A stretch of DNA of 64,000 bases from Halorussus marinus (lineage in GTDB: Archaea > Halobacteriota > Halobacteria > Halobacteriales > Haladaptataceae), in NCBI RefSeq assembly GCF_004765795.1, contig NZ_SBIV01000004.1, positions 186,001 to 250,000 of the forward strand, read 5' to 3'. A program made the translations under genes and the position numbers. Below are positions 16,348 to 56,236 of this stretch, piece after piece. Positions within the stretch are counted from its first letter, which is position 1. Each line of letters starts with the position of its first letter. The notes under the pieces were generated by a model that was not told the DNA's origin, made no database searches, and saw nothing but the letters and a program-made list of their open reading frames with translations.

Positions 16348-16624
16348 ACCCGGGTGGTCGGCCGGCCGGCCCCTAACAGTTCCCATTCACGGCGCGCCGG
16401 CGAGTCGCGATTATAAATTATACTTTTGAGAGTTCTTGCTGGGTCAGCTCGCGTCAGGTCAGGGCCGAGGATTCTTAGGGAGTCACAGACAGCAGACTGA
16501 AAGCTGATAGCACTGAACGAGTCGTTCGGCATGCGAACGATTCTATGACACCGCGGTAAAGACGGGGAAAGGCGTGAAAGCCGTTAGGAAAGAATTGAAC
16601 TATACCTGCCAGAAACACGGCAGC

Positions 16625-17947
16625 ATGGCAATGAAAGAGGGCGGTTCGACGGCAGAAAAAGACTTCTCACAGCCTATTTCGGGAGGAAAAGAACTACCAG
16701 AGGACGAACTCTGGGACGTCCTTACAAAAAACCTCCGTCAGGTGATGGAATCGACGGGTGCGGCGATGCGTATGCTCGATTTGAATTTCAACGTCGTGGT
16801 CGAGAACGAGCAGATGAAAGAACTGGGCGGCGTAGATGCCGAGGAGAGCGAGTTCGTCAAGTGCTACGACCAGTTCTGTAATCCGGAGGTGTGCGGAACT
16901 GGAAACTGTACACTGAAACAGATCGTCGATGAAGAGAGCGAAGAGATCCGCGTCGAGGTAGAAAAAGAGAGTTACGACGGGCGTGTCATCCCAACAGAAC
17001 TAGTCGTCAGGCCGATCTATGACGCCGAAGGCGATATCGTCGCTATTAGTGAGACGTTCCAGGATATTTCAGCTCGTAAGACCGCCGTCAGCGATATCAA
17101 AACGGCTGTTGACGATCTCGAAGAATCGTCGGAGGAAGTGGCCGAAAACTCCCAAACGATCAGCGACCAAGCGTCCCACCAACTTGAGTCGATTACCGAG
17201 ATCTCCGAAGAGATCGCCTCGCTCACCGCAACGGTCGAGGAAATCGCCGCGACAACAGATCAGGTCGAATCCACCAGCCAGCGAGCCCGTGAAGAAGCTG
17301 AATCCGGGAAGACCGAAGCCGAAGAAACGATCGATATCATGGAAAGTATCGAGCGCGCGGCGGCCGACGTGACCGCAGATATTCGCGACCTCGACGAGAG
17401 CGTCCAGCAGATCGACGAACTCGTCGATGTTATCAACGACATTGCCGACCAGACGAACATGCTCGCGCTGAACGCCTCGATCGAAGCAGCCAACGCAGGT
17501 CAAGCTGGCGACGGCTTTGCAGTCGTCGCTGATGAGGTGAAATCGCTGGCCGAGGAGTCACAGCAACGCGCATCTGAGATCGAATCGATCGTCACTGATG
17601 TCCGGGAAAACACTTCCGAGACGGTCAAGAGCCTCGAAGAAACCAACGACGTTGTTCAGCAGGGTGCAGAGAAGATAGAAAGCTCCAGCGAGACGTTCAC
17701 GCAGATCGCTGACGTCGTCGAAGACGTATCTGACGGCGTCACAGAGGTCGCGGATGCGACGGACGATCAAGCCGCAAGCACCGAAGAGATCGCCAGTATG
17801 GTCGACCAGACTGCGGCGGACTTCGAACGGGTCGTCGACAAAGCAGAGGCCATCGCAGCCGCAAACGAACAACAGACCGAGCGTATTCGAGATATCAGTG
17901 CCGACGTGGATTCGATGGACTCGCTCGACGTGCAGAGCGAACTGTAA
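16625..17947 (+). CDS. Soluble methyl-accepting chemotaxis transducer (Htr-like) with an N-terminal PAS domain
   Basis: Hairpin tip [43 protein letters not shown]-like end [20 protein letters not shown]; no TM segment. The start is at 16625 or 16631. Confidence 0.93.
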
Positions 17948-18295
17948 AAGTTCTGTTGCTATAGCGGTCTAGTCAAGTATTGTGAGTGATTTGAATACAT
18001 CTGGTGGTGGCCGCGTATCTCAGTTGCTCTCGCGACGAATTCGAGACAGTGCGTGACTGCCTTGACGAAATCGAACCCGTGGCCACGTCCGACGAACGAG
18101 CGGCTACTCAGGCCGTATCGATACGGCGTCTACGGACTGCACTGCTCCGTTGAATAGCAGTGGTCGTGTAGATAAGTGAACTGAGTCACACTGTGAGTGG
18201 CTGTGAAAGGAGGTCTCAAATGTGGTGTCGCTTCACCCTCTCACAGGGGGCTATTCAACAGGGCCCCGCCAACAGACATCGAATGGCTGTCGGTT

Positions 18296-18811
18296 CTACC
18301 AGTGAACTTCGAAAGTCGTCTCGGGGCCGTCGTCATCGACCCTCGCGTGGGCGTATTCGGCTTCGAAGTGTTGGGCTGTGCCTTTGAGAAAGCCTTTCTC
18401 CCACTGCGTCGGGTAGGGTGTCGTCGAGGTGATCTCGGCTTGGTTCTCACCCGTCTTTTCGTACGTGTACTCGCCCGGTGCCTGGCGGTGTTCGGTTTCG
18501 TACATTTCGGGGAGGTGGTTCAGTCCCTCGTGTGGCGAGTCGATAGTCGATGTCCAATCGAGAAACCGCGGCGTGGACTCGCCGATCTTAGCCAGGGCGC
18601 TCTCGCCGGTGTTGCGTTCGACCGCCGTCAGTACGTGGAGAAACTTCGCAAGTGGATACCACTCGTCGGGTTGGGGATCGGGTCTGTCGATTCCCTCCTC
18701 GTCGAGCATATCCCGCATCCGACTCTGATACACGGACATCACTCCGTCGATGCAAACCTGTACCATCTCACCGCGTACGGTACCACTCGGCTCGTTGGCT
18801 GTGAGTGTCAT
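18296..18811 (-). CDS. Hypothetical protein with a V4R/H-NOX-like ligand-binding fold
   Basis: Pattern GI..P.PDEWYP..F...IGE..P...YTYEKTG...ITS.TPYP...EKGFL.G...TFEVHW resembles the haloarchaeal V4R-like family (from memory); its ATG overlaps the stop of the upstream rhodanese gene by 1 bp. Confidence 0.65.
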   Translation of the reverse strand: MTLTANEPSGTVRGEMVQVCIDGVMSVYQSRMRDMLDEEGIDRPDPQPDEWYPLAKFLHVLTAVERNTGESALAKIGESTPRFLDWTSTIDSPHEGLNHLPEMYETEHRQAPGEYTYEKTGENQAEITSTTPYPTQWEKGFLKGTAQHFEAEYAHARVDDDGPETTFEVHW

Positions 18812-19686
18812 TAGAAATCGCCCTCCTTGAGTGCAGGCTCAGTGGCCTTCTCTACTGGCGCCGCGTCGTCGGCCGCCCATTCCGTCCACGACCCGTCGTA
18901 GTTGACAGCATCGACACCGAGGAGTTCCGAAAGAACGAACCACGTGATCGATGAGCGCTCCCCGATACGGCAATACGCGACCGTGGATCTGTCCGGGTCG
19001 ATGTACTCGCCGTAAATCTCTCGGAGTTCCGACTCTGACTTGAATGTGCCATCGGCGTTGACCGCTTTTCCCCACGGGACGTTTGCCGCGGTTGGAATGT
19101 GACCCTCGCGATCGGTGGTATTCGGGATCTCCGCTGGTGGCTTTTCACCACGGTACTCCTGTGGGTTTCGGACGTCGATAATCGGCCTGTCTCCGTCGAG
19201 ACTATCCATGATGTCTTCTTTGTACCCGCGGATGTCTTCGTTGGTCCCGTCGATCTCGTATTCGCGGGACGGGTACTCGACGTCGCCCTGCGTCTGTTCG
19301 TAGCCTTCGAGTCGCCAGTGCCGGCGGCCACCATCCAGCAACTGGATGTTGTCGTGCTGGTAGTAGTTAAGCACCCAGTAGGCGTGGCCGGCGAACCAGT
19401 TCGCTTGGTCGCCGTAGACGACGACCGTGGTGTCTCGCGTGATTCCCAGATCGCCGAACAATGATTCGGCCTCGCTCGGAGCAACGACGTTGCCGCCGAG
19501 CCCGTCGATGATGTCTTCTTCCCAGTCGATCTGCACGGCCCCCGGTATGTGCCAGTCGTCGTACACGTCCGGGTCCATATCGACTTCGACGAGCCGATAG
19601 TCGGGGTCGTCGGTCCGGAACCGGTCCAGGTGGTTACGAACCCATTCGGCCGATCGTACCGCGTCACTGTCGAGATGAGATGTCAC
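18811..19686 (-). CDS. Tandem-domain rhodanese / thiosulfate sulfurtransferase (CysA/TssA type)
   Basis: HIPGAV, LLDGG, GHIP, active-site YCRIGERSS and the NYDGSWTEW signature. Confidence 0.93.
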   Translation of the reverse strand: MTSHLDSDAVRSAEWVRNHLDRFRTDDPDYRLVEVDMDPDVYDDWHIPGAVQIDWEEDIIDGLGGNVVAPSEAESLFGDLGITRDTTVVVYGDQANWFAGHAYWVLNYYQHDNIQLLDGGRRHWRLEGYEQTQGDVEYPSREYEIDGTNEDIRGYKEDIMDSLDGDRPIIDVRNPQEYRGEKPPAEIPNTTDREGHIPTAANVPWGKAVNADGTFKSESELREIYGEYIDPDRSTVAYCRIGERSSITWFVLSELLGVDAVNYDGSWTEWAADDAAPVEKATEPALKEGDF

Positions 19687-19940
19687 AGGCAGAGATACTC
19701 AGTATCGGTACAAGTAACCGCCAACATCTTCTCAGAAAGTGAAAACTGCGTTCTTAATATTAATGCTCGTATTCTCATATACATAGTCGATCAACGAGCA
19801 CGCCCACCGTCCGACGCACAGTCCGATCTTTCCTCTGTGATTGCGCGAGTGCGATAATCGGGCGAGAGCACCAAGCCCAATAACAGCCGAGCCCGTCTCA
19901 GAAACCGTCCGGAATACGGAATCTGCGCTAACAACTACTG

Positions 19941-20468
19941 CTACAGTAGCCGGTACTCCCCGCGGCTCTCGGTGACCTCGCCACGGCGGACCAGTTTACC
20001 GAGCGCGTCACGGACGTAGTCGGCCGGGACGCCGCGCTCGTCGGCGTACGCGATCACCTCGTCTTCGGTCGGTCGGTCGAGCGCCCGGAGCGCGTCGAGG
20101 ACGGTGTCCTTGCGCGAGCGTCCCGAACCGGCCGTTCGGTTTTCGGCTCGCTCGCCGGCGGCCGCCACTTCGTCGGCGTCGATTCCCGAGGCTTCGAGGA
20201 ACGTCTCGTCGTCGACGACCGCCTCCTCAACGCGGGCCTCCATCTCCGAGAACGAGTCCAGTTGCGCGAACGACTCGCCCTCGCCTTGCCGGTTGGCGAG
20301 CATCGACGCCCGGACCTCCCGAGCGTGATCCTCGTCGTCGGTCTCGACGAACTTCTTTAGCTTCTCGAACTTCCTGCGCGTGCCACACCGCGGGCACTCG
20401 GTCGTCTCGGGCCGGCCCTCGACGAGCTTGAGCGCCCCGCAGTCGCTACAGCCGACGACGGCGTACAT
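19941..20468 (-). CDS. Zn-ribbon plus wHTH protein (DUF5817-like)
   Basis: MYAVVGCSDC...CPRCG and C-terminal LGKLVRRGEVTESRGEYRLL. Confidence 0.8.
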   Translation of the reverse strand: MYAVVGCSDCGALKLVEGRPETTECPRCGTRRKFEKLKKFVETDDEDHAREVRASMLANRQGEGESFAQLDSFSEMEARVEEAVVDDETFLEASGIDADEVAAAGERAENRTAGSGRSRKDTVLDALRALDRPTEDEVIAYADERGVPADYVRDALGKLVRRGEVTESRGEYRLL

Positions 20469-25187: not shown

Positions 25188-25286
25188 CGCCTCGTACGCG
25201 TGGCGGCGCGGGGACGCGAAACCGGCGGCCGGTCGGCGCCCGCACAGACACATGAGTCCACACACACCACGAGCGGGAGGCGTCGG

Positions 25287-28200
25287 ATGAACAGTACGCG
25301 AAACGCGGCTCGGTTGCTTGCAGTCGTCTTCTCGGTGTTGCTGGTGACGTCGGCGGCCGGGGGCGGCGCGCTGTCGGTCATCGGGACCGCGCAAGCACAG
25401 GAGGCCAGCGACGTGTTGTATCGCGTGAACGCGGGCGGCGACGCGGTGGAATCGCCGAGCGGTCCCGACTGGTCGGGGACCGGCGACCAGTACGTGACCG
25501 GCGGATCCGCGTACGGGGACTACTCGGGGACCGTCTCTCTCGACGGCTCGGTCCCGGCGGGGACGCCCACGGAGATATTCGGCACCGAAGTGTACGGCGA
25601 CCAGCAGTGGACCTTCTCGGAGAACGTCCAGAGCGACCAGCAGTACGAGGTCCGCCTGTACTTCGCCGAGGTCTACCACGGCGTGTCCAACGATAACGGA
25701 GCGGGCGCGCGCGTCTTCGACGTCGCCATCGAAGACGAGACGGCACTGAGCGCCTACGACATCTTCGAGGAGGTCGGCGCGGAGACCGGCGTGATGAAGT
25801 CGTTCACGGTCACCCCCTCGGACGGCTCCATCGACGTCAACTTCACGACGATCGAAGACAACGCGAAGGTCTCGGCCATCGAGATCGTCGAATCCGAACC
25901 GGAGCCGAACGCGCTCGGCGGGCCCTCGAACGTCGACTTCGGAACCGTCCTCACGGGCGAGTCGGCGACCGAGACGGTCACGGTCACGAACCTCGGCGAC
26001 GACGGCGACCCGGCGATCGACGTTTCGGGCGTCTCGGTCACCGGCGCGGACGCCGACGCGTTCTCGGTCGGGTCGGCGTCCCAGACGACGCTCGCCCCCG
26101 GCGAGTCTGCCGACCTGCCGGTGACGTTCTCGCCCGCGGACGCGCAGGCGAAGCAGGCCACGCTCGAAGTCGCCCACACCGGCGACGACTCCCCGCTGGC
26201 GATCGACCTCGCCGGCGAGGGTGCGAGCTCGGCGAACCCCGCGTTCTCGAAGAGCACCTTGCAGGGGTTCAGCGCGGGTAGTCCGACGGCCGTCGACTTC
26301 GGTCCCGACGGTCGGGCGTACGTCTCCACGCAGGGCGGGACGGTCTACGCGCTGAACGTCACCCGGACCGGCGAGAACAGCTACGCGGTCGAAAACGAGG
26401 TCGAGATCGGCGCGATCGAGGCGATTCCGAACCACGACGACGCCGGCGACTACACCCCCGGCGAGACCGACCGCCAGATCACGGGGCTGACGGCCGCCGG
26501 AACCGCCGACCAGCCGGTCGTCTACGTCTCCTCGTCGGACCCCTCGATCGACGTCGGGCAAGACGACGACGACACCGACACCAACTCCGGGGCGATCTCC
26601 CGGCTGACGCTCACGCCGGGGAGCGACGGCGTGCTCCAGACCGGCGAGATCGACCACGACGTGCTGGTGATGGGCCTGCCTCGCTCCGAGGAGAACCACG
26701 CCACCAACGGTCTGGACCTCTCGGCGGACGGCGAGACGCTGTACGTCGCCCAGGGCGGCCACACCAACAAGGGCGCGCCCGGCGACAACTTCGGCCACAC
26801 GCCCGAGTACGCGCTCTCGGCCGCGATCCTCGAGATCGACCTCGCCCAGATCGAGGCCGAGTATCAGGCCAAGAACCTCCAGAGCTACGACCCACAGGGC
26901 GCCAGCCAGTCGTACCCCGATCTGGAGTTCTACTACGCCGTTCCGACGATTCAGAACGACGACGCCACCGACGGCGACGACCTGCCGTTCGGCGGCAACG
27001 ACGGGATCAATCAGGCGAAACTCGTCGAGGGCAGTCCGGTTCAGATCTACTCGCCGGGCTACCGGAACCCCTACGATCTGGTCGTGACCCAGACCGGACA
27101 GGTGTACGCCGCGGATCACGGGCCAAACGGCGGCTGGGGCGGTCAGCCGGCCGACGCGGACGGCGCCGTCACGGCCGACGCCGCGTCGGTGACCAACCAC
27201 CCCAACGAGGCCGGTAGCTTCTCGACCAGCGACCAGCTCGCGAAGGTCGACGAGGGCGACTACGGCGGACACGCCGCGCCGATCCGGGCGAACCCGACCG
27301 GCGCGGACATCTACGACGCCGACGGGGAGATGGTGTTCGACATCACCGAGTCGAACTCCCCCGTGGCGCCGAGTCAGGTGAACCCGGTGGAGGCCGACTA
27401 CATTCCGCCGACCGGCGGCTCGCCCGACCCGGGCGCTCCCGCGGGCACCGCCAACACGATGGAGTTCGAAGACGGCCAGCACGTCCTCTTCGGCCCGACG
27501 GGCGGTCTCGACGAGTACACAGCCTCGAACTTCGGCGGCGCGATGGCGGGCGACCTCCTCCAAGTCGAGCTCAGCGGCGACGTCGAGCGCGTCGAACTGA
27601 GCGCCGACGGCGAGACGGTCGTGAACGTCGAGACCATCTTCAACACCGGCGGCCCGCTCGGGATCGACGCGGTCGGCGACGACGGCCCGTTCCCGGGCAC
27701 CGTCTGGACCGCGAACCACGGCGGCAACGACGTCACCGTCTTCGAGCCGGTCGACTACGGCGACACCGGTGGCGGCGACGGCGAGCAGTGTACCGGCGCC
27801 GACGACGCGACACTCGACGAGGACGGCGACGGCTACGACAACGCAGACGAGATCGACGCGGGCTCGGACCCGTGCTCGGCGGCCTCGACGCCCGCAGACT
27901 TCGACGGCGACGGGACCTCGAACCTCAACGACCCCGACGACGACGGCGACGGGCTCGACGACACCGAGGACCCGTTCGCGCTCGACCCGGCAAACGGCCT
28001 CGAGACGACCCCGCCGGTCCAGCACGACCTCTCGGAGCTCAGCCTGTTCGGCGAGAACGGGCAGGGCTGGACGGGGCTGATGACCAACGGGAGCGACTAC
28101 CGGGAGCGCTACGACCCGACCCAGATGACGGTCGGCGGCGCAGCCGAGGTCCTGACGGTCGAGGGCGTGCCCGCGGGCGACGCCTACGCGGACACGAACA

Positions 28201-31200
28201 CCCAGCAGTACGGGTTCCAGTTCGGCGTCGACCCGCCCGCGGAACCGTTCGTCGTCGAGACGACGGTCGCCTCCTTCCCGGAGAATCCCGAGGACTTCCA
28301 GTCGGCCGGCGTGTTCGTCGGCACCGGCGACCAGTCGAACTACGTCAAGCTCGTCGCCGCGGCCAACGGCGGCGACGGCGGCGTCGAGTTCGCGCAGGAA
28401 GTCGGCGACGAGTTCGAGGGGGAGATGACCGACGAGAGCGCGGTCACGGGGAACGACGTCACGCTCGGGCTGACGGTCGACCCGACGACCGACCCGGCGC
28501 CGGACAACGATATCGACGAGGTCGCTGTGACAGCCGAGTACGAGGTCGACGGGACGACCGCCGAGGTCGGAACCGCCGCGATGCCGGCGAACTGGCTCGA
28601 CACCGCGGACGGCGTCGCGCCCGCGGTCGGCGTCGTCTCGACGTCGAACGGTGCGAGTTCGACGTTCGACGCGACGTGGACCGATATCTCGGTCGAGTAC
28701 GTGACCCCGCCGAACGAGGCTCCCGGCGCCGCGTTCACCTACTCGCCGAGCCAGCCGACCGCGACCGAACAGGTGGCCTTCGACGCGTCGGGATCGAGCG
28801 ACGCCGACGGCTCGATCGCGAGCTACGAGTGGGACTTCGACGGCGACGGCGAGACCGACGCGACCGGCCAGAGCGTCACCCACGCGTTCGACGCGGCGGG
28901 CGAGTACGACGCGACCCTGACCGTCACCGACGACGAGGGCGCGACGAACGCGACGATCAAGACCGTCGCGGTGGCCGAGCCGGAGACCGAGACGCTCGCG
29001 GAGGCGGTCGCGAGCTACGGCGAGGACGACGACTCGACGATCAGTCTGGCGGAGATCCAGACCGCCATCAACTGGTGGTCGACCGGTGCAGAAGTGCCCA
29101 ACACCGGCGGGGAGACGTTCTCGCTTGAGGAGATCCAGCAGTTGATCAACCTCTGGTCGACCGGCGCGACCGTCGGCGACGGGTCCGACGGCGGAAGCGA
29201 GCAGACCGGCTCCGCGCTGGTCGAGATCACGCCCGACTCGGGCGTCGAGACCAGCACCTACGGCGGCGATACCTATCAGGTCACCAACACCGGCGAGAAG
29301 AACATCACGTCGGTGTCGTTCGACCTGAGCAGTTCGTCCCTTCCCGACATGGTGTTCGACCCGCAGGGCACCGCGGGCGATCCGACCGGCGAGGGGCTCA
29401 ACGTCGCCAGCGACGGCGGTACCGGGATCGTCACCGAACCCGGCACGGGCGAGGCGTTCGCCGCGCCGCACAACGGCCAGAACGCCGACGACGGCTACGA
29501 CGTGATGACCGTCGAGTTCGACGACTTCGAGCCGGGCGAACAGGCGACCTTCTGGGCCGACAACGACCCGACCACGATCAAAGGCGCGACGATCGCCTCC
29601 CAAGAGGCCGGCCCGGTTTCGGGGCTCGAACTCGCGCGCTCGACCGTGACGGTGACGTACGCCGACGGGACGACCCAGACCACCCAGCTGATGGGCGACG
29701 GGAGCGCCGGCGGCGCGACCGCCGTCGTGAACGCCACCGAGGCCCCCGCGCCGACCGTCGACGTGGCGGGCGTCTCGCTCGACGACGCCGCGCTCGAGGA
29801 CTACCACAGCGCGGCGACCGTCTCGGAGGCGAGCCAGACCGTGGCGGTCTCGGGCCAACCCGGCGAGACGGTCACGCTGGTCCGGGTCGAGGCCGAACTC
29901 GCGCTGAGTAACGTCCCGGACGCCGACGGCGACGGCGAGCCGGGGTACGACGTCGAACCCTACGAGGCGAACAACGCCCAGAACGTCGCGTACTACACGG
30001 CGACGATCGGGTCCGACGGGACCGCGACGATCCCGGTGACGCTGACGAACACGACCGGGGACGGCGACGACGCGGGCTACAACTACTTCGTGGCCGCCCA
30101 CGGCGAGGCCGCCGGCGACATGGGGCTCGCGTCCGACGTGGTCGTGCTGAAGTACGACCAGAACGCCGGCGACGGCGGCGACGCCGGCGGTGGCGGCGAC
30201 ACCGTGTTCGCGCTGAACGCCGGCGGCTCGGCGTACACCGCCGCCGACGGGACGGTGTACCAGGCCGACACCAACTTCGACGGCGGCACCGCGTACGATA
30301 CGACCGAGCAGATCGGCGACACGCAAGACGACCCGCTGTACCAGACCGAGCGGTACGGAAACTTCACCTACGACGTCCCGCTCGAGGACGGCGAGTACGA
30401 GGTCACCCTGCAGTTCGCCGAGATCTTCCAGGGCGTCGCGGCGAGCGACTCGCCCGACTCGACCGGGCCGACCGACGGCACGAACGAGAACGACCGCGTG
30501 TTCGACGCCTCGATCGAGGGCGAGGAGGTCCTGTCGAACTACGACATCTTCGCGGAGGTCGGGCCGCTGAACGCGACCGAGGAGACGTTCACCGCGACCG
30601 TCTCGGACGGCGAACTGTCAGTCGAGTTCAGCACCGTCTACGACAACGCGAAGGTGAGCGCGATCGAGGTCGCCGAGGTCGACGACGGCTCCGCCACCAA
30701 CGCCGCGCCGACGATCGACTCGATCGCAGACCAGACGCTCACCGTGGGCGACTCGACGACCGTTCCGGTGAGCGCCGACGACGCCGACGGCGACGACGTG
30801 TCGGTGTCGGTGACCGGCCCGGACTTCCTCACGCTCGCGAACGGTGAACTGACCGTCGCCCCGCAATCGGGCGACGCCGGCACGTACACCGTCGACGTCA
30901 CCGCCGCCGACGGTAACGGCGGAACGGCGACCGAGACGTTTCAGGTGACCGTCGAGCAAGCGGCCGGCGGCGACGCCAGCTCGGCCGACTTCGCGGTCAA
31001 CACCGGCGGCGCCATCGACGCGAGCACGTACGGCGCGGGCTCGTTCGAGATCACCAACACCGGCGACGGGCAGATCGCGTCGGTCACCTACGACCTGAGC
31101 TCCGCGGCGTTCCCCGACGTAGTGTTCGATCCCGAGGGGACCGCGGGCGACTCGGGCGCAAAGGGCTTCACGCCCGACGGCGGCGCGAGCGCGGTCGACC

Positions 31201-32456
31201 CCTCGGGGTCGTTCGCCGCCCCGCACAACGGCCAGAACGGCGAGGACGGCTACGACAAACTCGCCATCGACTTCGACGACTTCGAGGGCGGCGAAACGTT
31301 CGCCTTCTCGGCCGACGTCGACCCGACCAGCATCAAGAACGCCGACGGGACCGGCGCGGCGGGTTCGGTCTCGGGGCTGGAGCTGTCGGGCGCGACGGTG
31401 ACCGTCGAGTACGCCGACGGGGCGACCCAGACGACCCATCTGTTCGGCGACGCGAGCGCGGGCGGCTCGCAGGCCACCTCGAAGGCCGACGCCGCCGGCG
31501 CGCCGACGATCGGCGTCGAGGCCGTCTCGCTCGATTCGAGCGCGCTCGACGACTATCACAGCGCGGCGACCGTCTCGGAGCCGACCCAGACCGTGACTGT
31601 CTCCGGGCCGGCCGGCGGGACCGTCGAACTGCTCCGAATCGAGGGACAGCTCGAACTCGCCAATCAGGCCGACGGCTACGATCTGGAGGCCTACGAGGCC
31701 AACACCGCCGAGAGCGTCGCGTACCAGACCGTCGAACTCGACGCCGACGGGCAGGCCGCGGTCGAGGTGTCGCTGACCAACACGTCGAGTAGCGGCGTCG
31801 AAGGCGGGTTCAACTACCTCCTCGCCGCGGTGGAGGACGGCGGCGACACCGGCCAGCCCTCGAACGTGGCCGTGCTGAAGTACGACCAGAACGCGGGCGC
31901 CGACGACCCCGACACCGCGGGGCCGCAGGCGCTCCACCGCGTGAACGCGGGCGAGAGCGCGACTATTTCTGCGACCGACGACGGCCCGAACTGGACCGGC
32001 GTCGCGAACGCGAGTTCGCAGTACCTCGCCTCGGTCGCAGAGGAGGACGGCGGGACCTACTGTGGCGGCGACGCCCTCACGCCCGACGACACCGTCCCCG
32101 AGTCCACGCCCGACGGCGTGTGGAACTGCGAGCGCTACGGGGACATGTCCTGGGAGTTCCCGGTCGACCCCGGTCAGGACGTCGAGGTTCGACTCTCCCT
32201 CGCCAACTCCTACCCGGGCGCGAGCGCGCAGGGCGACCGGCAGTTCAACGTCTCCATCGAGGGGTCGCAGGTCCTGACGCAGTACGACCCGGTGGCCGAC
32301 GTCGGACACGCGACCGCCACGACCAAGAGCGTCACCGTCACCGACGACGGGGACGGCACCATCGCGGTCGACTTCGAGCAGGGCGCCGCCGAGAACCCGG
32401 AGGTCAGAGCCATCGAGATTCTGACGGTCGAGGACGGCACCGACGGGGGGAGCTGA
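25287..32456 (+). CDS. Giant secreted multidomain protein (about 2390 aa): three malectin domains, ASH/Ig domain, glucose/sorbosone-dehydrogenase-like beta-propeller, Ca-binding DxDxDG repeats, lectin-like domain, PKD, atypical dockerin-like module and two copies of an unknown domain
   Basis: Signal peptide MNSTRNAARLLAVVFSVLLV; malectin motifs YRVNAGG...YFAE...RVFDV...AKVSAIEI three times; propeller motifs PTAVDFGPDGRAYV, GLPRSEENHATNG and GYRNPYD; PKD motif FDASGSSDADGSIASYEWDF. Confidence 0.88.
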   Translation: MNSTRNAARLLAVVFSVLLVTSAAGGGALSVIGTAQAQEASDVLYRVNAGGDAVESPSGPDWSGTGDQYVTGGSAYGDYSGTVSLDGSVPAGTPTEIFGTEVYGDQQWTFSENVQSDQQYEVRLYFAEVYHGVSNDNGAGARVFDVAIEDETALSAYDIFEEVGAETGVMKSFTVTPSDGSIDVNFTTIEDNAKVSAIEIVESEPEPNALGGPSNVDFGTVLTGESATETVTVTNLGDDGDPAIDVSGVSVTGADADAFSVGSASQTTLAPGESADLPVTFSPADAQAKQATLEVAHTGDDSPLAIDLAGEGASSANPAFSKSTLQGFSAGSPTAVDFGPDGRAYVSTQGGTVYALNVTRTGENSYAVENEVEIGAIEAIPNHDDAGDYTPGETDRQITGLTAAGTADQPVVYVSSSDPSIDVGQDDDDTDTNSGAISRLTLTPGSDGVLQTGEIDHDVLVMGLPRSEENHATNGLDLSADGETLYVAQGGHTNKGAPGDNFGHTPEYALSAAILEIDLAQIEAEYQAKNLQSYDPQGASQSYPDLEFYYAVPTIQNDDATDGDDLPFGGNDGINQAKLVEGSPVQIYSPGYRNPYDLVVTQTGQVYAADHGPNGGWGGQPADADGAVTADAASVTNHPNEAGSFSTSDQLAKVDEGDYGGHAAPIRANPTGADIYDADGEMVFDITESNSPVAPSQVNPVEADYIPPTGGSPDPGAPAGTANTMEFEDGQHVLFGPTGGLDEYTASNFGGAMAGDLLQVELSGDVERVELSADGETVVNVETIFNTGGPLGIDAVGDDGPFPGTVWTANHGGNDVTVFEPVDYGDTGGGDGEQCTGADDATLDEDGDGYDNADEIDAGSDPCSAASTPADFDGDGTSNLNDPDDDGDGLDDTEDPFALDPANGLETTPPVQHDLSELSLFGENGQGWTGLMTNGSDYRERYDPTQMTVGGAAEVLTVEGVPAGDAYADTNTQQYGFQFGVDPPAEPFVVETTVASFPENPEDFQSAGVFVGTGDQSNYVKLVAAANGGDGGVEFAQEVGDEFEGEMTDESAVTGNDVTLGLTVDPTTDPAPDNDIDEVAVTAEYEVDGTTAEVGTAAMPANWLDTADGVAPAVGVVSTSNGASSTFDATWTDISVEYVTPPNEAPGAAFTYSPSQPTATEQVAFDASGSSDADGSIASYEWDFDGDGETDATGQSVTHAFDAAGEYDATLTVTDDEGATNATIKTVAVAEPETETLAEAVASYGEDDDSTISLAEIQTAINWWSTGAEVPNTGGETFSLEEIQQLINLWSTGATVGDGSDGGSEQTGSALVEITPDSGVETSTYGGDTYQVTNTGEKNITSVSFDLSSSSLPDMVFDPQGTAGDPTGEGLNVASDGGTGIVTEPGTGEAFAAPHNGQNADDGYDVMTVEFDDFEPGEQATFWADNDPTTIKGATIASQEAGPVSGLELARSTVTVTYADGTTQTTQLMGDGSAGGATAVVNATEAPAPTVDVAGVSLDDAALEDYHSAATVSEASQTVAVSGQPGETVTLVRVEAELALSNVPDADGDGEPGYDVEPYEANNAQNVAYYTATIGSDGTATIPVTLTNTTGDGDDAGYNYFVAAHGEAAGDMGLASDVVVLKYDQNAGDGGDAGGGGDTVFALNAGGSAYTAADGTVYQADTNFDGGTAYDTTEQIGDTQDDPLYQTERYGNFTYDVPLEDGEYEVTLQFAEIFQGVAASDSPDSTGPTDGTNENDRVFDASIEGEEVLSNYDIFAEVGPLNATEETFTATVSDGELSVEFSTVYDNAKVSAIEVAEVDDGSATNAAPTIDSIADQTLTVGDSTTVPVSADDADGDDVSVSVTGPDFLTLANGELTVAPQSGDAGTYTVDVTAADGNGGTATETFQVTVEQAAGGDASSADFAVNTGGAIDASTYGAGSFEITNTGDGQIASVTYDLSSAAFPDVVFDPEGTAGDSGAKGFTPDGGASAVDPSGSFAAPHNGQNGEDGYDKLAIDFDDFEGGETFAFSADVDPTSIKNADGTGAAGSVSGLELSGATVTVEYADGATQTTHLFGDASAGGSQATSKADAAGAPTIGVEAVSLDSSALDDYHSAATVSEPTQTVTVSGPAGGTVELLRIEGQLELANQADGYDLEAYEANTAESVAYQTVELDADGQAAVEVSLTNTSSSGVEGGFNYLLAAVEDGGDTGQPSNVAVLKYDQNAGADDPDTAGPQALHRVNAGESATISATDDGPNWTGVANASSQYLASVAEEDGGTYCGGDALTPDDTVPESTPDGVWNCERYGDMSWEFPVDPGQDVEVRLSLANSYPGASAQGDRQFNVSIEGSQVLTQYDPVADVGHATATTKSVTVTDDGDGTIAVDFEQGAAENPEVRAIEILTVEDGTDGGS

Positions 32457-32458
32457 CG

Positions 32459-32677
32459 ATGCGAGCGACGATCGACTCCCGGCCTCGGCCGAACGCCGGC
32501 CGACGGTCGCCCGAGCCCGATGCGAGCGGTCCCGAGCCGAGCGCACGCCCGACGATCGCCGACGCCAGCGCCCCGCCGACGCCGACCGCGCTCGTCGGGA
32601 CGGCGGCGAACCACTCGATCGCGACACCGCGCGTCGCGATCACACCTCACACCACCGCGGAGGGTGGTCGACAATGA
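32459..32677 (+). CDS. Possible short Pro/Ala/Thr-rich bridging ORF (72 aa)
   Basis: ATG 2 bp after the giant gene's stop; its TGA overlaps the next ATG (ATGA). Composition is not acidic, so coding status is uncertain. Confidence 0.4.
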   Translation: MRATIDSRPRPNAGRRSPEPDASGPEPSARPTIADASAPPTPTALVGTAANHSIATPRVAITPHTTAEGGRQ

Positions 32678-34983
32678 ACACGAAAAACACCCAGAGGTCA
32701 ACGCGGTTCACCGCCGCGAGCCTCGCGTTGCTGGTCCTGCTCTCGGCGTTCGCGCCGGTGGGGATCGGCGGCGCCCAGCAGGCAGGCGTATCGATAGCTC
32801 AATCGGTCGAGGGCGACGCGACGGTCGCGCCCGGCGACGTCGTCACCGTCGAGGCGACGGTGACTGCACCGGGCCTCAACGGCCCGGCCATCGACGTCGG
32901 CGCGCCCGACGGCTGGACAGTCACCAGCCAGTCGGCCGACGGCGGAAACTTCAAACCCGCCGAGAGCCAGTGGGTCTGGCTCTCAGGCGACCACACGGTG
33001 ACCTACACCGTGGCGGTCCCCGCCGACGCTTCGGAGGGCGATTACGCCCTCTCGACAGAGGGTTCGGGGATCGTCCCGGACACCGGCGAGCGCGTGACCG
33101 AAACGACCGAGACGACGATCACGGTCCAGCAAAACGAGGCGCCGAACGCGGACGCGGGGAGCGACCAGACCGTCGAGGAGGGCGCGACGATCAGCCTCGA
33201 CGCCTCGGGATCGAGCGATCCCGACGGCGACGACCTGACCTACGCGTGGACCCAGACCGGCGGTCCCAGCGTCTCGCTGACCGGGGCCGACACCCCCACG
33301 CCGTCGTTCGACGCGCCCGACGAGCCCCAGCAGACCCAGACGTACGCCTTCGAGGTCGCGGTCTCGGACGGTCAGACGACGACCACCGACGCGGTGACCG
33401 TGACGGTCGAACCGGTCGACGATCCGCCGACCGCCGACGCGGGCGACGACCAGACCGTCGCGGAAGGGAGCACGGTCCAGCTATCCGGGTCGGGAACCGA
33501 CGTCGACGACGCGACCCTGTCGTACGCGTGGACTCAGACCGGCGGTCCCGACGTCTCGCTGAGCGACGCCGACGTCCCGGCGCCGTCGTTCACCGCGCCG
33601 GACGTCGAGAGCCCGACCGACGTCGTCTTCGAGCTGACAGTCTCGGACGGCGAGACCGCGGTCGCCGACGCGGTGACGGTCACCGTCGAGCCGACCGCGC
33701 CCGCGAACGAGCCGCCGACCGCCGACGCGGGCGACGACCAGACGGTCCCGGCGGGTGAGACAGTCGCGCTCGACGCCTCGGGATCGAGCGACCCCGACGG
33801 CGACGACCTGACCTACGCGTGGACCCAGACGGGCGGTCCCAGCGTCTCGCTGATCGGGGCCGACACCCCCACGCCGTCTTTCACCGCGTCGGGCCTCGAC
33901 GGCGACGCGACGCTGACCTTCGAGGTCGAAGTCGGCGACGGGCAGGCGACCGACACCGATTCGGTGGCCGTGACCGTGACCGCGAGCGCCGACAACCAGC
34001 CGCCGACCGCCGACTTCGCAGTCGACCCGAGTTCGCCCGTCCCGGGCGAATCGGTCAGCTTCGACGCCTCGGGGTCGAGCGACCCCGACGACGACCTGAG
34101 CTACGAGTGGACGATCGAGGGTGCCACCGCAGGTCCCGAGGAGTCGACGCTACTCGACTCGGACTTCGAGAGCGGGTCGCTCGCGACCGACGGGTGGACC
34201 CACGACGCAATCGAGAGCGGTGCCACCGCGGGCGTCGACGACGCAACCGCGAACTCCGGGAGCCAGTCGGCCTCCCACTACGGCGGTGAGGGCGCGCTCG
34301 TCTCGCCCGCGCTCGACGCGAGCGAGGCCGACTCGCTGACGGTGAGCTACTGGATCCAGAAGGGCTCTGACGCGTTCAGCGAGAACCCCGACCCGAACAC
34401 CGGCGAGGACCTGATCGTCGAGTACCTCGACCAGAACGGCGACTGGGTCGAACTCGACCGCGTCGAGGACACCGTCGAGTCCGGCGCCGAGTTCACGACG
34501 AACTTCACCGTCGAGGCCGACGCCGCGCTCCACGACGGCTTCCAACTCCGATTCCGGCAAGAGGGCGCGTCGGTCACGTCCGGCGACTACTGGCACGTCG
34601 ACGACGTGTCGGTCGCCGCGACCGACGGGGCCGAGACCGCCCCAATCCAGAAGTCGGGCCAGACGGTCTCGCACGCGTTCGATCAGGCCGGTACCTACGA
34701 CGTGACCCTGACGGTCGCCGACGGCGACGGCGCGACCGACGCGGTGACGAAGCCCGTCGAGGTGATCGAGGACCAACAACAGCCCCAGTCGATTCCGGAG
34801 GCGGTCGCGGGTCAGGACGGCACGGTCGACACCGGCGAGATCCAGCAGGCGATCAGCTGGTGGGTGAACGACGAGCCGGTTCCGGACACCGACGGCGAGA
34901 CCATAGACACCCAGACGATACAGACGCTCATCGACCTGTGGGTCGAGAACGCGACGGTCGCAAACGGGGGTGAGTCCCCGTGA
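32674..34983 (+). CDS. Secreted protein: X module, three PKD/REJ-like Ig repeats, PKD split by a jelly-roll insert, C-terminal atypical dockerin-like module
   Basis: Signal peptide; three P.ADAG.DQTV...YAWTQTGGP repeats; DFESG...W...WHVDDVSV insert; EIQQAISWW...IQTLIDLW tail. Confidence 0.88.
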   Translation: MNTKNTQRSTRFTAASLALLVLLSAFAPVGIGGAQQAGVSIAQSVEGDATVAPGDVVTVEATVTAPGLNGPAIDVGAPDGWTVTSQSADGGNFKPAESQWVWLSGDHTVTYTVAVPADASEGDYALSTEGSGIVPDTGERVTETTETTITVQQNEAPNADAGSDQTVEEGATISLDASGSSDPDGDDLTYAWTQTGGPSVSLTGADTPTPSFDAPDEPQQTQTYAFEVAVSDGQTTTTDAVTVTVEPVDDPPTADAGDDQTVAEGSTVQLSGSGTDVDDATLSYAWTQTGGPDVSLSDADVPAPSFTAPDVESPTDVVFELTVSDGETAVADAVTVTVEPTAPANEPPTADAGDDQTVPAGETVALDASGSSDPDGDDLTYAWTQTGGPSVSLIGADTPTPSFTASGLDGDATLTFEVEVGDGQATDTDSVAVTVTASADNQPPTADFAVDPSSPVPGESVSFDASGSSDPDDDLSYEWTIEGATAGPEESTLLDSDFESGSLATDGWTHDAIESGATAGVDDATANSGSQSASHYGGEGALVSPALDASEADSLTVSYWIQKGSDAFSENPDPNTGEDLIVEYLDQNGDWVELDRVEDTVESGAEFTTNFTVEADAALHDGFQLRFRQEGASVTSGDYWHVDDVSVAATDGAETAPIQKSGQTVSHAFDQAGTYDVTLTVADGDGATDAVTKPVEVIEDQQQPQSIPEAVAGQDGTVDTGEIQQAISWWVNDEPVPDTDGETIDTQTIQTLIDLWVENATVANGGESP

Positions 34984-36500
34984 CCCGCGAGGTCGGCGCC
35001 ACGTTCGGGCGAGCGCTCGCGCTCGCCGTCGCCGCGCTGGTGGCGGTCGCCGCGATCGGCCCCGCGGCCGCGATCCCCCAACCCGCCGGCGCAATCGGAC
35101 TCGCACAGACGCCCGAGACCACGACTGTCGCCCCCGGTGAGACGGTCACCCTTGAAACGACGATCAACGCGACGGGCTACAACGCGCCCGGGCTCGCGGT
35201 GAGCCTGCCCGACGGCTGGAGCGTCCAGAGCCAGTCGACCGACGGGCCGTTCACGTACAAGTCCGCCACCGACGAGTGGGTCGGGCTCTCGGGCGGCGAG
35301 TACACCGTGACCTACACCGTCGCCGTCCCCGACGACGCCGCGGCCGGCGAGTACACCGTGAGTGCCGACGGCTCGGCTATCGACCCCGAGACCGACGCGT
35401 TCGTCGAGGCCACCGACGGCTCCACGGTGACGGTCCAGGACGACTCCACGACCGATCCCGAGCCGGAGCCCGATCCCGACCCGACGACCGTGTCGGTGAG
35501 CCAGTCAGCGAGCGGTCAGGTCGCGCCCGGCGGAACGGTGACGATGACCGCGCAGGTCGACGCGACCGGACTCGACGCGCCCGCGCTCGCGGTGGACCTG
35601 CCCGACGGCTGGAGCGTTCAGAGCCAGACCGCCGACGGCCCCGCGAGCTACAAGCCGGCCACCGGCGAGTGGGTCTGGCTCGCCGGCGACGTCGATGCCG
35701 TCTACACCGTCGAGTACGTGGTGGCGGTCCCCTCGAACGTGCCCGCGGGCGAGTACACCCTCACGGCTGAGGCGTCGGCGCTCGACGCCGAGGACACGCA
35801 GGTGACCGACGCGGCCGAGACGACCGTCACCGTCGCCGAGGACGACGGCCAACAGCCCGCCGGACCGTCGACGGCCGCCCGTCTCTCGCCGTCGAGCGAG
35901 TTCGCAGGCGTCGATCAGATGGCGACATTTGACGTGGTCGTCGACGCCGCAGACGGCGGCATCGGAGTCACCGACTTCACCGTGTCGGTCGCCGACACCG
36001 AGGTCGCCGCCATCACCGACGCGTCGCTCGCGGAGAACGGCACGGAGGGTCTCAGCGACGTCGAGATCGCCGAGGACGGCTCGTCGGTGAGCGTCGAGTC
36101 AGTACTCATGGACACCGGCGACACCGGGTCGGTGACCCTCGCGACTGTCACCGTCGAGACGGCCGCGGAGGGCGCGACCGACCTCGATCTCACCGTCTCG
36201 GCGCTCGGGACCGAGGGCGGGACCGCCTACGTGGTGACCGAGACCGTCGGCGCGACGCTCGACGTCTCGGAGCTGGTGGTCGGCGACGCGGCGAATCCGG
36301 CCGCCGACCCCGACGGCGACGGCGTCTACGAGGACGTCAACGGCGACGGCGCCGTCGACATCACCGACGTGCAAGCGCTCTGGAGCGCCCGAAACGACCC
36401 GACGGTCGCGAACAACCCCGGCGCGTTCGACTTCAACGGCGACGGGTCGTTCAGCATCCTCGACGTGCAGGCGCTCTACAGCCAGGAGCTGGGGGCCTGA
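34980..36500 (+). CDS. Secreted adaptor/scaffoldin-like protein: two X modules, a cohesin-like domain and a C-terminal canonical dockerin
   Basis: GTG start overlapping the upstream stop (GTGA); duplicated F-hand dockerin EDVNGDGAVDITDVQAL...FDFNGDGSFSILDVQAL; cohesin-like TFDVVVD...TVSVAD.EVAAIT...LATVTV...G.TDLDLTV. Confidence 0.85.
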   Translation: MTREVGATFGRALALAVAALVAVAAIGPAAAIPQPAGAIGLAQTPETTTVAPGETVTLETTINATGYNAPGLAVSLPDGWSVQSQSTDGPFTYKSATDEWVGLSGGEYTVTYTVAVPDDAAAGEYTVSADGSAIDPETDAFVEATDGSTVTVQDDSTTDPEPEPDPDPTTVSVSQSASGQVAPGGTVTMTAQVDATGLDAPALAVDLPDGWSVQSQTADGPASYKPATGEWVWLAGDVDAVYTVEYVVAVPSNVPAGEYTLTAEASALDAEDTQVTDAAETTVTVAEDDGQQPAGPSTAARLSPSSEFAGVDQMATFDVVVDAADGGIGVTDFTVSVADTEVAAITDASLAENGTEGLSDVEIAEDGSSVSVESVLMDTGDTGSVTLATVTVETAAEGATDLDLTVSALGTEGGTAYVVTETVGATLDVSELVVGDAANPAADPDGDGVYEDVNGDGAVDITDVQALWSARNDPTVANNPGAFDFNGDGSFSILDVQALYSQELGA

Positions 36501-36505
36501 CCCTC

Positions 36506-37381
36506 ATGACGAGAACGATCGAGACGCGACCCGCGACGATCGCGGTCGCGGGGCTCGTGGCGCTCGTGCTGGCGGTGCCGGCGGTCGGCGCCGCGGGCGG
36601 GGCGGCGGTCGGCCTCTCGTCGGCCGCCGAGCGGACCGCGGTCGGCCAGACCGCGACGTTCGACGTGGTCGTCGACAGCGCAGACGGCGGCGTCGGCGCC
36701 TACACCGCGACCGTCTCGGTGGCGGACCCCGACGTCGCGGCGATCACGGGCGTCGAACTCGCCGGCGATCCCGTCGAGTCGGTCGAAGTCGCCGAGGACG
36801 GCTCGTCGGCCGACATCGAGGCCGCGCTGATGAACACCAGCGACGCCGGATCGGTGGTCGTCGCGACCGTCACGGTCGAAGGCGAGGCGGCGGGTGCGAC
36901 CGATCTGGCCCTCTCGGTGTCCGAACTCGGCGACGAGGACGGCACCGCGTACACGGTGACCGACGAGACCGGCGCGACGCTCGACGTTCGAGCGAACGAC
37001 GCCGAAGGCGACGGTGCACAAGAAAACAGTGAGGACGCGAACGGCGACGGCGACGCCGACGTCGTCGGCGCCGACGGTGAGAGCAGTGGCGACCCCGACA
37101 GCGACGACGACACCGACGCCGCTACCAGCGACGGCGACGGGGCCGACTCGACGTCGCTCGCGACCACGACGACCGTCGCCGACGGGTCGGCCGACACCGC
37201 GTCGACGGCGACTGAGACGACGGTCGACCGAACGTCGGCTCAGACCGATCCGGGATCGGCCGACGACGGCGACGGGGGCGCCGACCGCTCGGACGGTCCG
37301 GCCCTCTCGGCCGTGTTCCTGCTCGTCGCGGTCCTCGCGGCGCTCGCGGCCGGCGCGGTCGTCGCGTTCCGCGACCGATAG
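36506..37381 (+). CDS. Membrane-anchored cohesin-like protein (anchoring scaffoldin)
   Basis: Signal peptide, one cohesin-like domain homologous to that of the upstream gene, an Asp/Ser/Thr-rich stalk, and a C-terminal TM helix followed by RDR. Confidence 0.83.
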   Translation: MTRTIETRPATIAVAGLVALVLAVPAVGAAGGAAVGLSSAAERTAVGQTATFDVVVDSADGGVGAYTATVSVADPDVAAITGVELAGDPVESVEVAEDGSSADIEAALMNTSDAGSVVVATVTVEGEAAGATDLALSVSELGDEDGTAYTVTDETGATLDVRANDAEGDGAQENSEDANGDGDADVVGADGESSGDPDSDDDTDAATSDGDGADSTSLATTTTVADGSADTASTATETTVDRTSAQTDPGSADDGDGGADRSDGPALSAVFLLVAVLAALAAGAVVAFRDR

Positions 37382-37557: not shown

Positions 37558-37797
37558 ATGACCGACACCGCCCGCCTCAAGGACGTGGTCGAGATTCTGG
37601 GCATCTTCTCGATGTTCGGGCTGAGCGTCTTCGCCTACCTCGCGTGGTGGCTCGCGTTTCACAACGGCGGGACCGTCCGGATCGACGTGACCGCGTTCGG
37701 CGAACTGTGGCTCGAATACCTGCTCTGGCTGGTCGTCACGCCGCTGATCACCCTCGGGCTGTACTACTACGTCGAACGGGGCGGGCGCTCGGGGTGA
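37558..37797 (+). CDS. Small two-TM membrane protein
   Basis: 79 aa with two hydrophobic helices flanking NGGTVRIDVTAFGE. Confidence 0.65.
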   Translation: MTDTARLKDVVEILGIFSMFGLSVFAYLAWWLAFHNGGTVRIDVTAFGELWLEYLLWLVVTPLITLGLYYYVERGGRSG

Positions 37798-55982: not shown

Positions 55983-56236
55983 GGCTGGTCGTTCGCCCGA
56001 CCGAGCAAAATGGTTTGCGTCTCGGCGCGTGTGTCCGAAAACGCGGCTCGCAGGGCGGGATCTGTGGCGACACCGCTGGCGATATTTGCGGGCGTTCACA
56101 TGTCACTAACTTATTAGGGGCCTCGTACCGGCCGCTTAATCCTCCTGTAACCCGGGTAATAGCCCGTCAACCCGCCAAACGGTGCGAAACGGTAGGCCCT
56201 GTTTATTGGCGGGTCCGGCGATATGATGGCACGCCT

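Follow-up and report, generated by a model that had tools for sequence, protein, structure and literature searches.

Adaptor and anchoring scaffoldins such as ScaB of Acetivibrio cellulolyticus, ScaC and ScaE of Ruminococcus flavefaciens and SdbA and OlpB of Clostridium thermocellum arrange cellulosomes in ordered tiers. The subject of this study is a cluster of four genes, g1 to g4, of the haloarchaeon Halorussus marinus (assembly GCF_004765795.1, contig NZ_SBIV01000004.1, 186,001-250,000; this 64-kb stretch is called the window, all positions are counted in it and all features given below lie on its + strand). They encode a predicted secreted giant cargo of 2389 amino acids (g1, 25287-32456), a secreted extender of 769 (g2, 32674-34983), a secreted adaptor of 506 (g3, 34980-36500) and a membrane anchor of 291 (g4, 36506-37381). 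As proposed here, the cluster shares with cellulosomal scaffoldins a single-cohesin anchor, a specificity-converting adaptor and ordered tiers. Cellulosomes, however, use a cohesin-dockerin pair at each tier and carry enzymes, whereas here the second tier apparently consists of a DUF11/CnaA-type receptor domain, named X, and of a small tag, named WW, and the cargo is devoid of glycoside hydrolase. An earlier reading of the DNA letters alone (the original prediction) had proposed a cellulosome-like operon at this place.

Within archaea, the pair ORF2375/ORF2376 of Archaeoglobus fulgidus is described, in the available part of the source, as binding strongly and specifically through cohesin and dockerin (PMC9705933). 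Like that pair, our locus has a dockerin gene beside a cohesin gene (g3 then g4), in an archaeon and without cellulase; unlike it, it would add two tiers via X and WW on the dockerin protein, as well as the giant cargo. Anaerobic methanotrophic archaea (ANME) possess scaffoldin-like proteins, in which as many as five cohesins are combined with a dockerin and for which surface attachment is proposed, and archaeal non-cellulosomal cohesins and dockerins have been without assigned function since their discovery, according to the accessible text (PMC9012536, PMC5244752). The ANME proteins resemble ours in being archaeal, non-cellulolytic and of proposed, that is predicted, surface attachment, but the same text mentions no second module pair. 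Haloarchaeal dockerins are reported on enzymes and interpreted as substrate-binding in the portions at hand of two further sources (PMC10963439, PMC13260240).

The cohesin-dockerin tier of our locus is a further member of this known archaeal non-cellulosomal type. The WW/X tier looks, from sequence comparison, like a second docking pair able to replace cohesin-dockerin and is apparently undescribed: searches of the open-access literature, supplements aside (including S4 Data of PMC9012536), brought up neither a haloarchaeal scaffold in tiers nor a WW/X pair. From the genome patterns, we consider it quite likely that the four gene products form a surface scaffold which is non-cellulolytic, held together non-covalently and based on two plug-and-socket pairs independent of each other.

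WW tags and X modules across loci and genomes

The original prediction had named a gene-neighbourhood survey across Halobacteria as a way to check it. Loci were chosen by the g1 propeller and not by their tags, from 28 of 401 Halobacteria genomes and a set of further loci; with identical sequences counted once, this gave 34 loci, our own included. When the tag of the giant is set beside the first domain of the next gene, 19 loci combine WW with X, 8 combine dockerin with cohesin, 6 have neither tag nor receptor, and in one a WW stands at the contig end; the cross combinations, WW with cohesin or dockerin with X, are absent from the 34 loci. On a quick tree of the propellers the tag changes 11 times (minimum 2; shuffled mean 12.6), and the tag has therefore been switched repeatedly. 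The two tags also exclude each other in the best 120 of 1392 giant homologs, where WW only occurs in 66, dockerin only in 24, both in none and neither in 30, 8 of these 30 having type IX secretion system (T9SS), FlgD-Ig or SLH attachment domains in precomputed Pfam matches.

WW and X also occur together at the genome level. In 400 other Halobacteria genomes, X is present in 34 of the 41 genomes with WW; at thresholds picked after the data had been seen, it is present in 31/31 (≥50 bits), and reciprocally WW is present in 27 of 28 genomes with X (≥60 bits). X lies within 12 kb of WW for 42 of 55 WW matches. Six of the seven genomes with WW only were examined with a wider profile, by which the gene that comes next was seen to contain X in G037 and G152. 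A gene beginning with X directly follows 15 of the 32 non-giant genes with C-terminal WW, and in five cases a PGF motif lies close to the C-terminal end. The arrangement is reduced to its minimum in five loci (L077, L079, L083, L086, L143), which pair a cargo ending in WW with an X-stalk protein ending in a transmembrane (TM) helix or PGF motif, and L010, with cargo-dockerin and cohesin-stalk-TM, is their mirror image. X also stands immediately before WW in 27 of the best 150 library WW proteins, mirroring the cohesin-dockerin cassette of g3.

Our own genome holds a second X-X gene on another contig, adjoining a WW gene (L023:3356-6598; G000:C8:87356-90601). This X-X gene also encodes a T/E/A-rich stalk and a DUF192 domain, and is followed by the gene of an LVIVD-repeat protein with C-terminal WW, in which the first loop is complete and EF-like. 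At this X/WW pair a TM anchor was not seen; from sequence, its cargo could also dock on g2 or g3. The LVIVD-repeat protein, g1 and g2 are the three WW-tagged proteins of the genome.

Outside Halobacteria, 13 genomes match WW (12 of 43 in family f12). Nine of the 13 were examined: X lies near WW in seven, an X gene ends in PGF in six, and in four genomes 4-7 WW modules are clustered with 2-6 X. The X of these genomes aligns with our own at 99.5% probability, and their clusters gave no match to the haloarchaeal cohesin and dockerin profiles, which may miss distant members. In four genomes (G533, G541, G501, G593), the stretches L125-L128, L130-L131 and L135-L136 were seen to be clusters of 25-35 kb with many WW proteins, adaptors of X...WW type and anchors of X-stalk-PGF type.

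The distance matrices of WW and X are modestly correlated (Mantel test over 17 loci, rho 0.35, p 0.004), and those of the propeller, Y1 and two malectins of g1 are uncorrelated with X. A complex prediction for the first X module of g3 and the WW tag of g1, from alignments of 57 and 46 rows and with the controls not folded, scored 0.07 for a mark of 0.32 and speaks neither for nor against the pair.

This prediction apart, the results lead us to lean towards the following reading, taken as one. WW and X would be a tag-receptor pair distinct from cohesin-dockerin, orthogonal to it and interchangeable with it, a DUF11/CnaA-type domain serving as docking socket; haloarchaea, methanogens and probably Candidatus (Ca.) Bipolaricaulota would by this means attach hundreds of different exported proteins to anchors of membrane or lipid type; and our operon would link the two pairs in series, giving a surface fibre of several tiers that extends itself and functions in saturated salt.

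Several points, besides the late choice of the bit thresholds, weigh against the WW-X pairing and the scaffold proposed here. One of the six untagged giants (L097) is cut by the contig end. X is matched at E ≤ 1e-5 in 73 genomes, 39 of which are without WW match; no X was found in the stretches examined of the WW genomes G050, G236, G274 and G155; and 17/32 non-giant WW genes are without an X gene directly after them. Three of the six X anchors outside Halobacteria score 23-25 bits only. The WW-X Mantel test is one of 10, among which two control pairs have p ~0.02. Tag and receptor genes lie side by side, so that part of the pattern is due to their being inherited together; kin genomes, too, are not independent. 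DUF11-type domains are moreover described, in the available part of the source, as stalk units of adhesins (bioRxiv 10.1101/2025.04.25.650565).

Nature of the X and WW modules

The two X modules reported earlier in g3 are present (X1, 35094-35438; X2, 35490-35837, 57% identical to X1), and a third one begins g2 (32788-33129, 51% identical to X1), the three being 50-57% identical. The model of X1, with a predicted local distance difference test (pLDDT) of 98, is a nine-stranded beta-sandwich of CnaA/DUF11 (CLIPPER) type. In VIA it matches CnaA-type domains with Z 12.2-13.3 and a root-mean-square deviation (rmsd) of ~2 (3kpt, Z 13.3) and CLIPPER 9ifr with Z 12.9, rmsd 2.0 and 23% identity, cohesins, which have broadly the same topology, coming just after with Z 10.4-12.0 and rmsd 2.8-3.3. 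Pfam at E ≤ 0.01 finds NPCBM_assoc in 49, DUF11 in 32 and the cohesin family PF00963 in 2 of 57 X copies; hhalign of X against cohesins gives 30% probability, and the X alignment has no useful match among PDB sequences. A lysine lies within the first 14 residues in 1/57 copies; the Lys-Asn isopeptide bond of CnaA-type domains uses a first-strand lysine, as stated in the accessible part of the source (bioRxiv 10.1101/2025.04.25.650565). X is thus, according to its model, a CnaA-type/DUF11 sandwich without the first-strand isopeptide lysine. It is similar in fold and in Pfam matches to the CLIPPER/DUF11 domains, which the same part of this source places in surface proteins of archaea together with PKD domains, but it differs from them by the missing lysine, by standing alone on anchors as a cohesin does, and by its proposed role as a receptor rather than a stalk repeat.

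The WW tag comprises ~60 residues in two helix-like repeats ending in tryptophan, I-x-x-x-E-I-Q-x-A-I-x-W-W and T-I-x-x-x-x-I-Q-x-L-I-x-x-W. It is internal in g1 (28992-29174, residues 1236-1296) and C-terminal in g2 (34789-34959, residues 706-762). The atypical dockerin-like modules announced in these two proteins do exist and are 46% identical, but dockerin homology was not detected: PF00404 at E ≤ 0.1 matches 0/46 WW modules, and hhalign with haloarchaeal dockerins stays below 4% (2.8% and 3.7%). No NCBIfam model matches WW either. When modules were scanned with an EF-like loop pattern, a full loop was found before the first WW helix in 29/157 of them (5/46 of the aligned ones), the second repeat being preceded not by such a loop but by V-P-x-T-G-G; given the 29 copies, descent of WW from a dockerin is possible. 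Searching PDB sequences with the WW alignment gave weak matches, many of them to EF-hand proteins, and the Atlas model of g2 WW has TM-scores of 0.83-0.85 with Ca. Bipolaricaulota proteins and 0.46 with a Dockerin_1 cluster. The dockerin label had come without a receptor; the comparative evidence points to X as the receptor of this module.

WW matches at least 417 library protein clusters at E ≤ 0.001 and lies at the C-terminus in 131 of its 150 best matches. Its carriers include proteases, beta-helices, propellers and carbohydrate-binding modules (74 of the best 150 scanned, 21 of these 74 without Pfam match), and, among 10 clusters checked, the sources name two, Ca. Bipolaricaulia and Methanolobus. 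Judged by these architectures, WW is deployed like a dockerin on many cargo proteins. In two non-acidic proteins, P0143 and P0151 (the latter from Ca. Bipolaricaulia), WW was seen just before a C-terminal Ig-like tail, with a CHU_C match in P0143.

The cohesin-dockerin tier and the giant cargo

In g3, X1 and X2 are followed by a cohesin (35868-36269) and, after a linker of 2 residues, by a canonical dockerin (36273-36497). The latter had been called a textbook dockerin, and it deserves the name: a unit of calcium loop and helix occurs in it twice, almost unchanged, at residues 452 and 484, and PF00404 matches at E 1.4e-9 (38.5 bits, cut-off 22.9). It is the sole dockerin found in the genome, which is 99.97% complete. 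The cohesin of g4 (36599-36991) is 60% identical to that of g3, and both had rightly been taken for homologous cohesins; the PF00963 match looked for in them is nevertheless absent from both domains, and PF00963 at E ≤ 0.01 finds 1/28 aligned cohesin homologs. By sequence, the two cohesins form a divergent subfamily. The conclusion that there are no cohesins, to which PF00963 alone would lead, is overruled by fold searches of the g3 model. This AlphaFold2 model, obtained from 28 homologs (pLDDT 95), has cohesins in all of its top 16 VIA rows (Z 12.4-15.5), the best being 6kgc (Z 15.5, rmsd 2.1, 127 aligned), and matches 2xdh of A. fulgidus with Z 14.4, rmsd 2.2 and 121 aligned; Foldseek, too, ranks cohesins, alone or in complexes, first, 2xdh among them. 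A profile search of PDB sequences with the cohesin alignment was only suggestive (best E 0.079). The g3 domain, according to its model, and the g4 domain, according to its 60% identity, have the nine-stranded cohesin fold.

With the cohesin sequence profile built here, matches at E ≤ 1e-8 are obtained in 152/401 Halobacteria genomes, at most 10 candidates per genome being scored. The identity of adaptor and anchor cohesins is no higher within loci (0.49) than between them (0.47), so that the 60% seen here does not in general point to a specificity in common. In g4, the cohesin is carried by a stalk (~36992-37285) that is, as described at the outset, rich in Asp, Ser and Thr (50% over 98 residues), and by a C-terminal TM helix (~37289-37375, by hydropathy); no PGF motif was found in g4.

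The genome inventory amounts to 2 cohesins, one each in g3 and g4, 1 dockerin, 5 X and 3 WW. Pfam finds no enzyme domain on the dockerin-bearing g3, no GH5 (glycoside hydrolase family 5) cellulase was found in the genome, GH5 being the family searched, and the genome has no multi-cohesin scaffoldin, its 2 cohesins being on two proteins. The locus is not a cellulosome, because it has neither a multi-cohesin scaffoldin nor a dockerin-bearing enzyme; what remains of the cellulosome-like label is the parts, cohesin and dockerin.

Related loci show other uses of the same modules. In L005, L006, L008 and L020, serial cargo genes each end in a cohesin-dockerin cassette, so that chaining is possible in principle. 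In L073 (G094:C1:581000-595500) the giant is split, its first half ending with a dockerin and its second beginning with a cohesin, which suggests, from sequence, a natural re-joining of a split giant by docking modules.

The giant g1 is composed of a malectin, an ASH-type Ig domain, a beta-propeller, TSP3-like acidic repeats, a 235-residue domain, PKD and the WW tag, then Y1-Y2, malectin, Ig, Y1-Y2 and malectin. PF11721 matches it in three stretches (E 3.7e-66), corresponding to malectin domain 1 (25407-25901) and to domains 2 and 3 (~30201-30686 and ~31923-32435). The propeller (26241-27761) resembles GSDH (PQQ sugar dehydrogenase), with a PF07995 match at E 2.4e-5 and 24.2 bits, below the cut-off of 25; PF07995 at E ≤ 0.01 is found in 29 of 33 propeller homologs, and the best PDB match is 2ism, a 'putative oxidoreductase' (E 0.003). 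H153 and R275-N276 are invariant in the propeller alignment, and we take them to resemble GSDH motifs. The conserved Y1-Y2 unit (29202-30161, again 30972-31889) had no usable Atlas match and no family match in profile searches, and these searches gave no family to residues ~905-1140 either. Pfam finds no glycoside hydrolase domain in g1-g4. Our best guess, based on the malectins, is that g1 serves adhesion to glycans; the propeller perhaps oxidises sugar, which is less well founded. The lectin part of the predicted lectin/oxidoreductase cargo is thus retained with three malectins, and its oxidoreductase part is left with a weak, sub-cut-off GSDH match. Homologs of g1, as judged by the propeller, occur in 28/401 Halobacteria genomes, our own counted.

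The extender g2 consists of X, three K319L-type PKD domains, another PKD with an inserted domain, and the WW tag; the inserted domain received no assignment, a Reelin subrepeat match being weak (E 0.04). In most relatives the locus comprises three genes and the PKDs belong to the adaptor, g2 being an extra tier, and L070 has five tiers like our locus.

Proposed assembly, alternatives and genomic setting

The tiered assembly that had been foreseen, from anchor to adaptor to stalk protein and cargo, is well supported by fold models and comparative genomics, and probably proceeds as follows. All four proteins would be exported by Sec, and g4 alone would stay in the membrane by its C-terminal helix, lifting one cohesin on its acidic stalk. 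The g3 dockerin would dock on it in a calcium-dependent manner, as the family and the uniqueness of this dockerin suggest. With 2 cohesins and 1 dockerin in the inventory, no ligand other than g3 was found for either cohesin, hence g3 could self-chain, its cohesin binding another g3; alternatively, this cohesin may merely buttress the adjacent dockerin. The 2-residue linker fits this alternative, as does the correlation of dockerin distances with the adjacent cohesin (rho 0.60) rather than with the anchor cohesin (0.20), a result that also weighs against the assembly favoured here. The two X domains of g3 would be receptors for WW, capturing either g1 directly or g2. The latter would dock by its WW and add a PKD stalk and a new N-terminal X, so that the stalk becomes longer, perhaps in head-to-tail fashion. 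The WW in the middle of its chain would hold g1, which would display three malectins and the GSDH-like propeller; glycan binding by g1 could serve adhesion to particles or cells, perhaps with sugar oxidation in addition, and is the weakest step of the scheme. A different pair at each tier would keep the cargo off the anchor cohesin and fix the order of assembly.

Other explanations were weighed against this scaffold of two pairs. Cohesin-dockerin could join g3 to g4 while X is a stalk only and WW a degenerate dockerin binding cohesins, other WW or another surface component, X and WW travelling together as neighbours. The resemblance of X to DUF11, a known stalk family, the 39/73 genomes with X alone, the spare cohesin of g3, and the EF-like loops (29/157) and weak EF-hand matches of WW, which fit a dockerin ancestry, all suit this explanation. 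We nevertheless hold it to be unlikely: in the giants, WW is mid-protein and 2.8-5.2 kb away from X, and even so a change of tag on the tree goes with a change of receptor; the two-gene loci L077, L079, L083, L086 and L143 are without cohesin in the stretch examined; and the clusters outside Halobacteria are rich in WW and X without matching the haloarchaeal cohesin or dockerin profiles, distant members possibly being missed.

Alternatively, both pairs could be real but the product mainly a shed or cell-free network, a matrix or biofilm polymer, in which g3 and g2 self-polymerise and the g4 anchor is incidental. Indeed g2 (X and WW) and g3 (cohesin and dockerin) each hold plug and socket of one pair, and in at least seven related loci the last gene is a multi-cohesin gene in which no TM helix was detected. 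In these (L059, L060, L063, L073, L094, L095, L101), it has 2-3 cohesins and an unassigned C-terminal domain in place of the helix, which counts against a membrane-anchored scaffold; several of these genes share a similar acidic tail, which may be another attachment domain. The last gene is, however, of cohesin-stalk-TM type here and in many loci, L062 has a PGF-CTERM above cut-off, and the minimal loci match one cargo to one anchor, so that a network of this kind appears improbable to us. Far less credible still is a haloarchaeal cellulosome degrading polysaccharides. True cohesins, a dockerin and three malectin carbohydrate-binding domains are at hand, and dockerin-bearing glycoside hydrolases are reported from other haloarchaea in the accessible text (PMC10963439, PMC13260240), but g1-g4 are without glycoside hydrolase domain, the one dockerin of the genome sits on the adaptor, the WW-tagged set is limited to g1, g2 and the LVIVD-repeat protein, and GH5, the only family searched, was not found.

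At the locus itself, the coordinates of the four co-oriented secreted genes were confirmed: by a hydropathy scan, on which the export and TM calls rest, each of g1-g4 has one N-terminal hydrophobic segment, and g4 alone has a C-terminal one (residues ~262-290). No twin-arginine motif was found in the four N-termini. The tight coupling described for the genes holds for g2/g3, which overlap by GTGA, and for g3/g4, spaced by 5 bp, but not for g1 and g2, which are 217 bp apart and bridged by an open reading frame (ORF) of 72 codons (32459-32677) beginning 2 nt past the g1 stop and overlapping the g2 start by ATGA. A spacer ORF of this type is found in 12/28 rows, our locus and one duplicate locus counted, a raw count without chance control, and its sequence is not conserved; it is possibly a translational coupler. 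An ORF of 12 codons with a GGAGG motif (25252-25290) also precedes g1, whose start it overlaps by ATGA.

The four-gene cluster is flanked by pus10 and rnhB, which lie 0.4-2.4 kb apart in 5/5 same-genus genomes tested (inverted in one), and profile searches found no giant, X or WW in 8 same-family genomes. The cluster is thus a lineage-specific gain, or was lost in relatives. Its GC content at third codon positions (GC3) is 0.90-0.94, the same as in the genes on either side, and the window contains no tRNA. Between g4 and rnhB lies a hydrophobic ORF of 79 codons (37558-37797), and no counterpart of this stretch was found in four same-genus gaps. Elsewhere in the window, 16001-20000 has a GC content of 0.58 instead of ~0.69, with genes low in GC3, and 56015-58447 is a long ORF with 31% Asp+Glu, a strong AT skew and no NCBIfam match.

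The locus offers a small, testable architecture on which archaeal cohesins and dockerins outside cellulosomes can be studied, laboratory genetics being available for the group. The profile indicates that cohesins are common in Halobacteria although Pfam finds 1/28 of the domains from which it was built. If WW does bind X, a function would be named for a hitherto unannotated module present on hundreds of protein clusters, and a DUF11-type domain would gain a new role. Archaea would then possess a non-covalent route of surface display beside archaeosortase anchoring, and the pair would provide protein engineering with a salt-tolerant coupling, expected to be free of cross-reaction with cohesin-dockerin.

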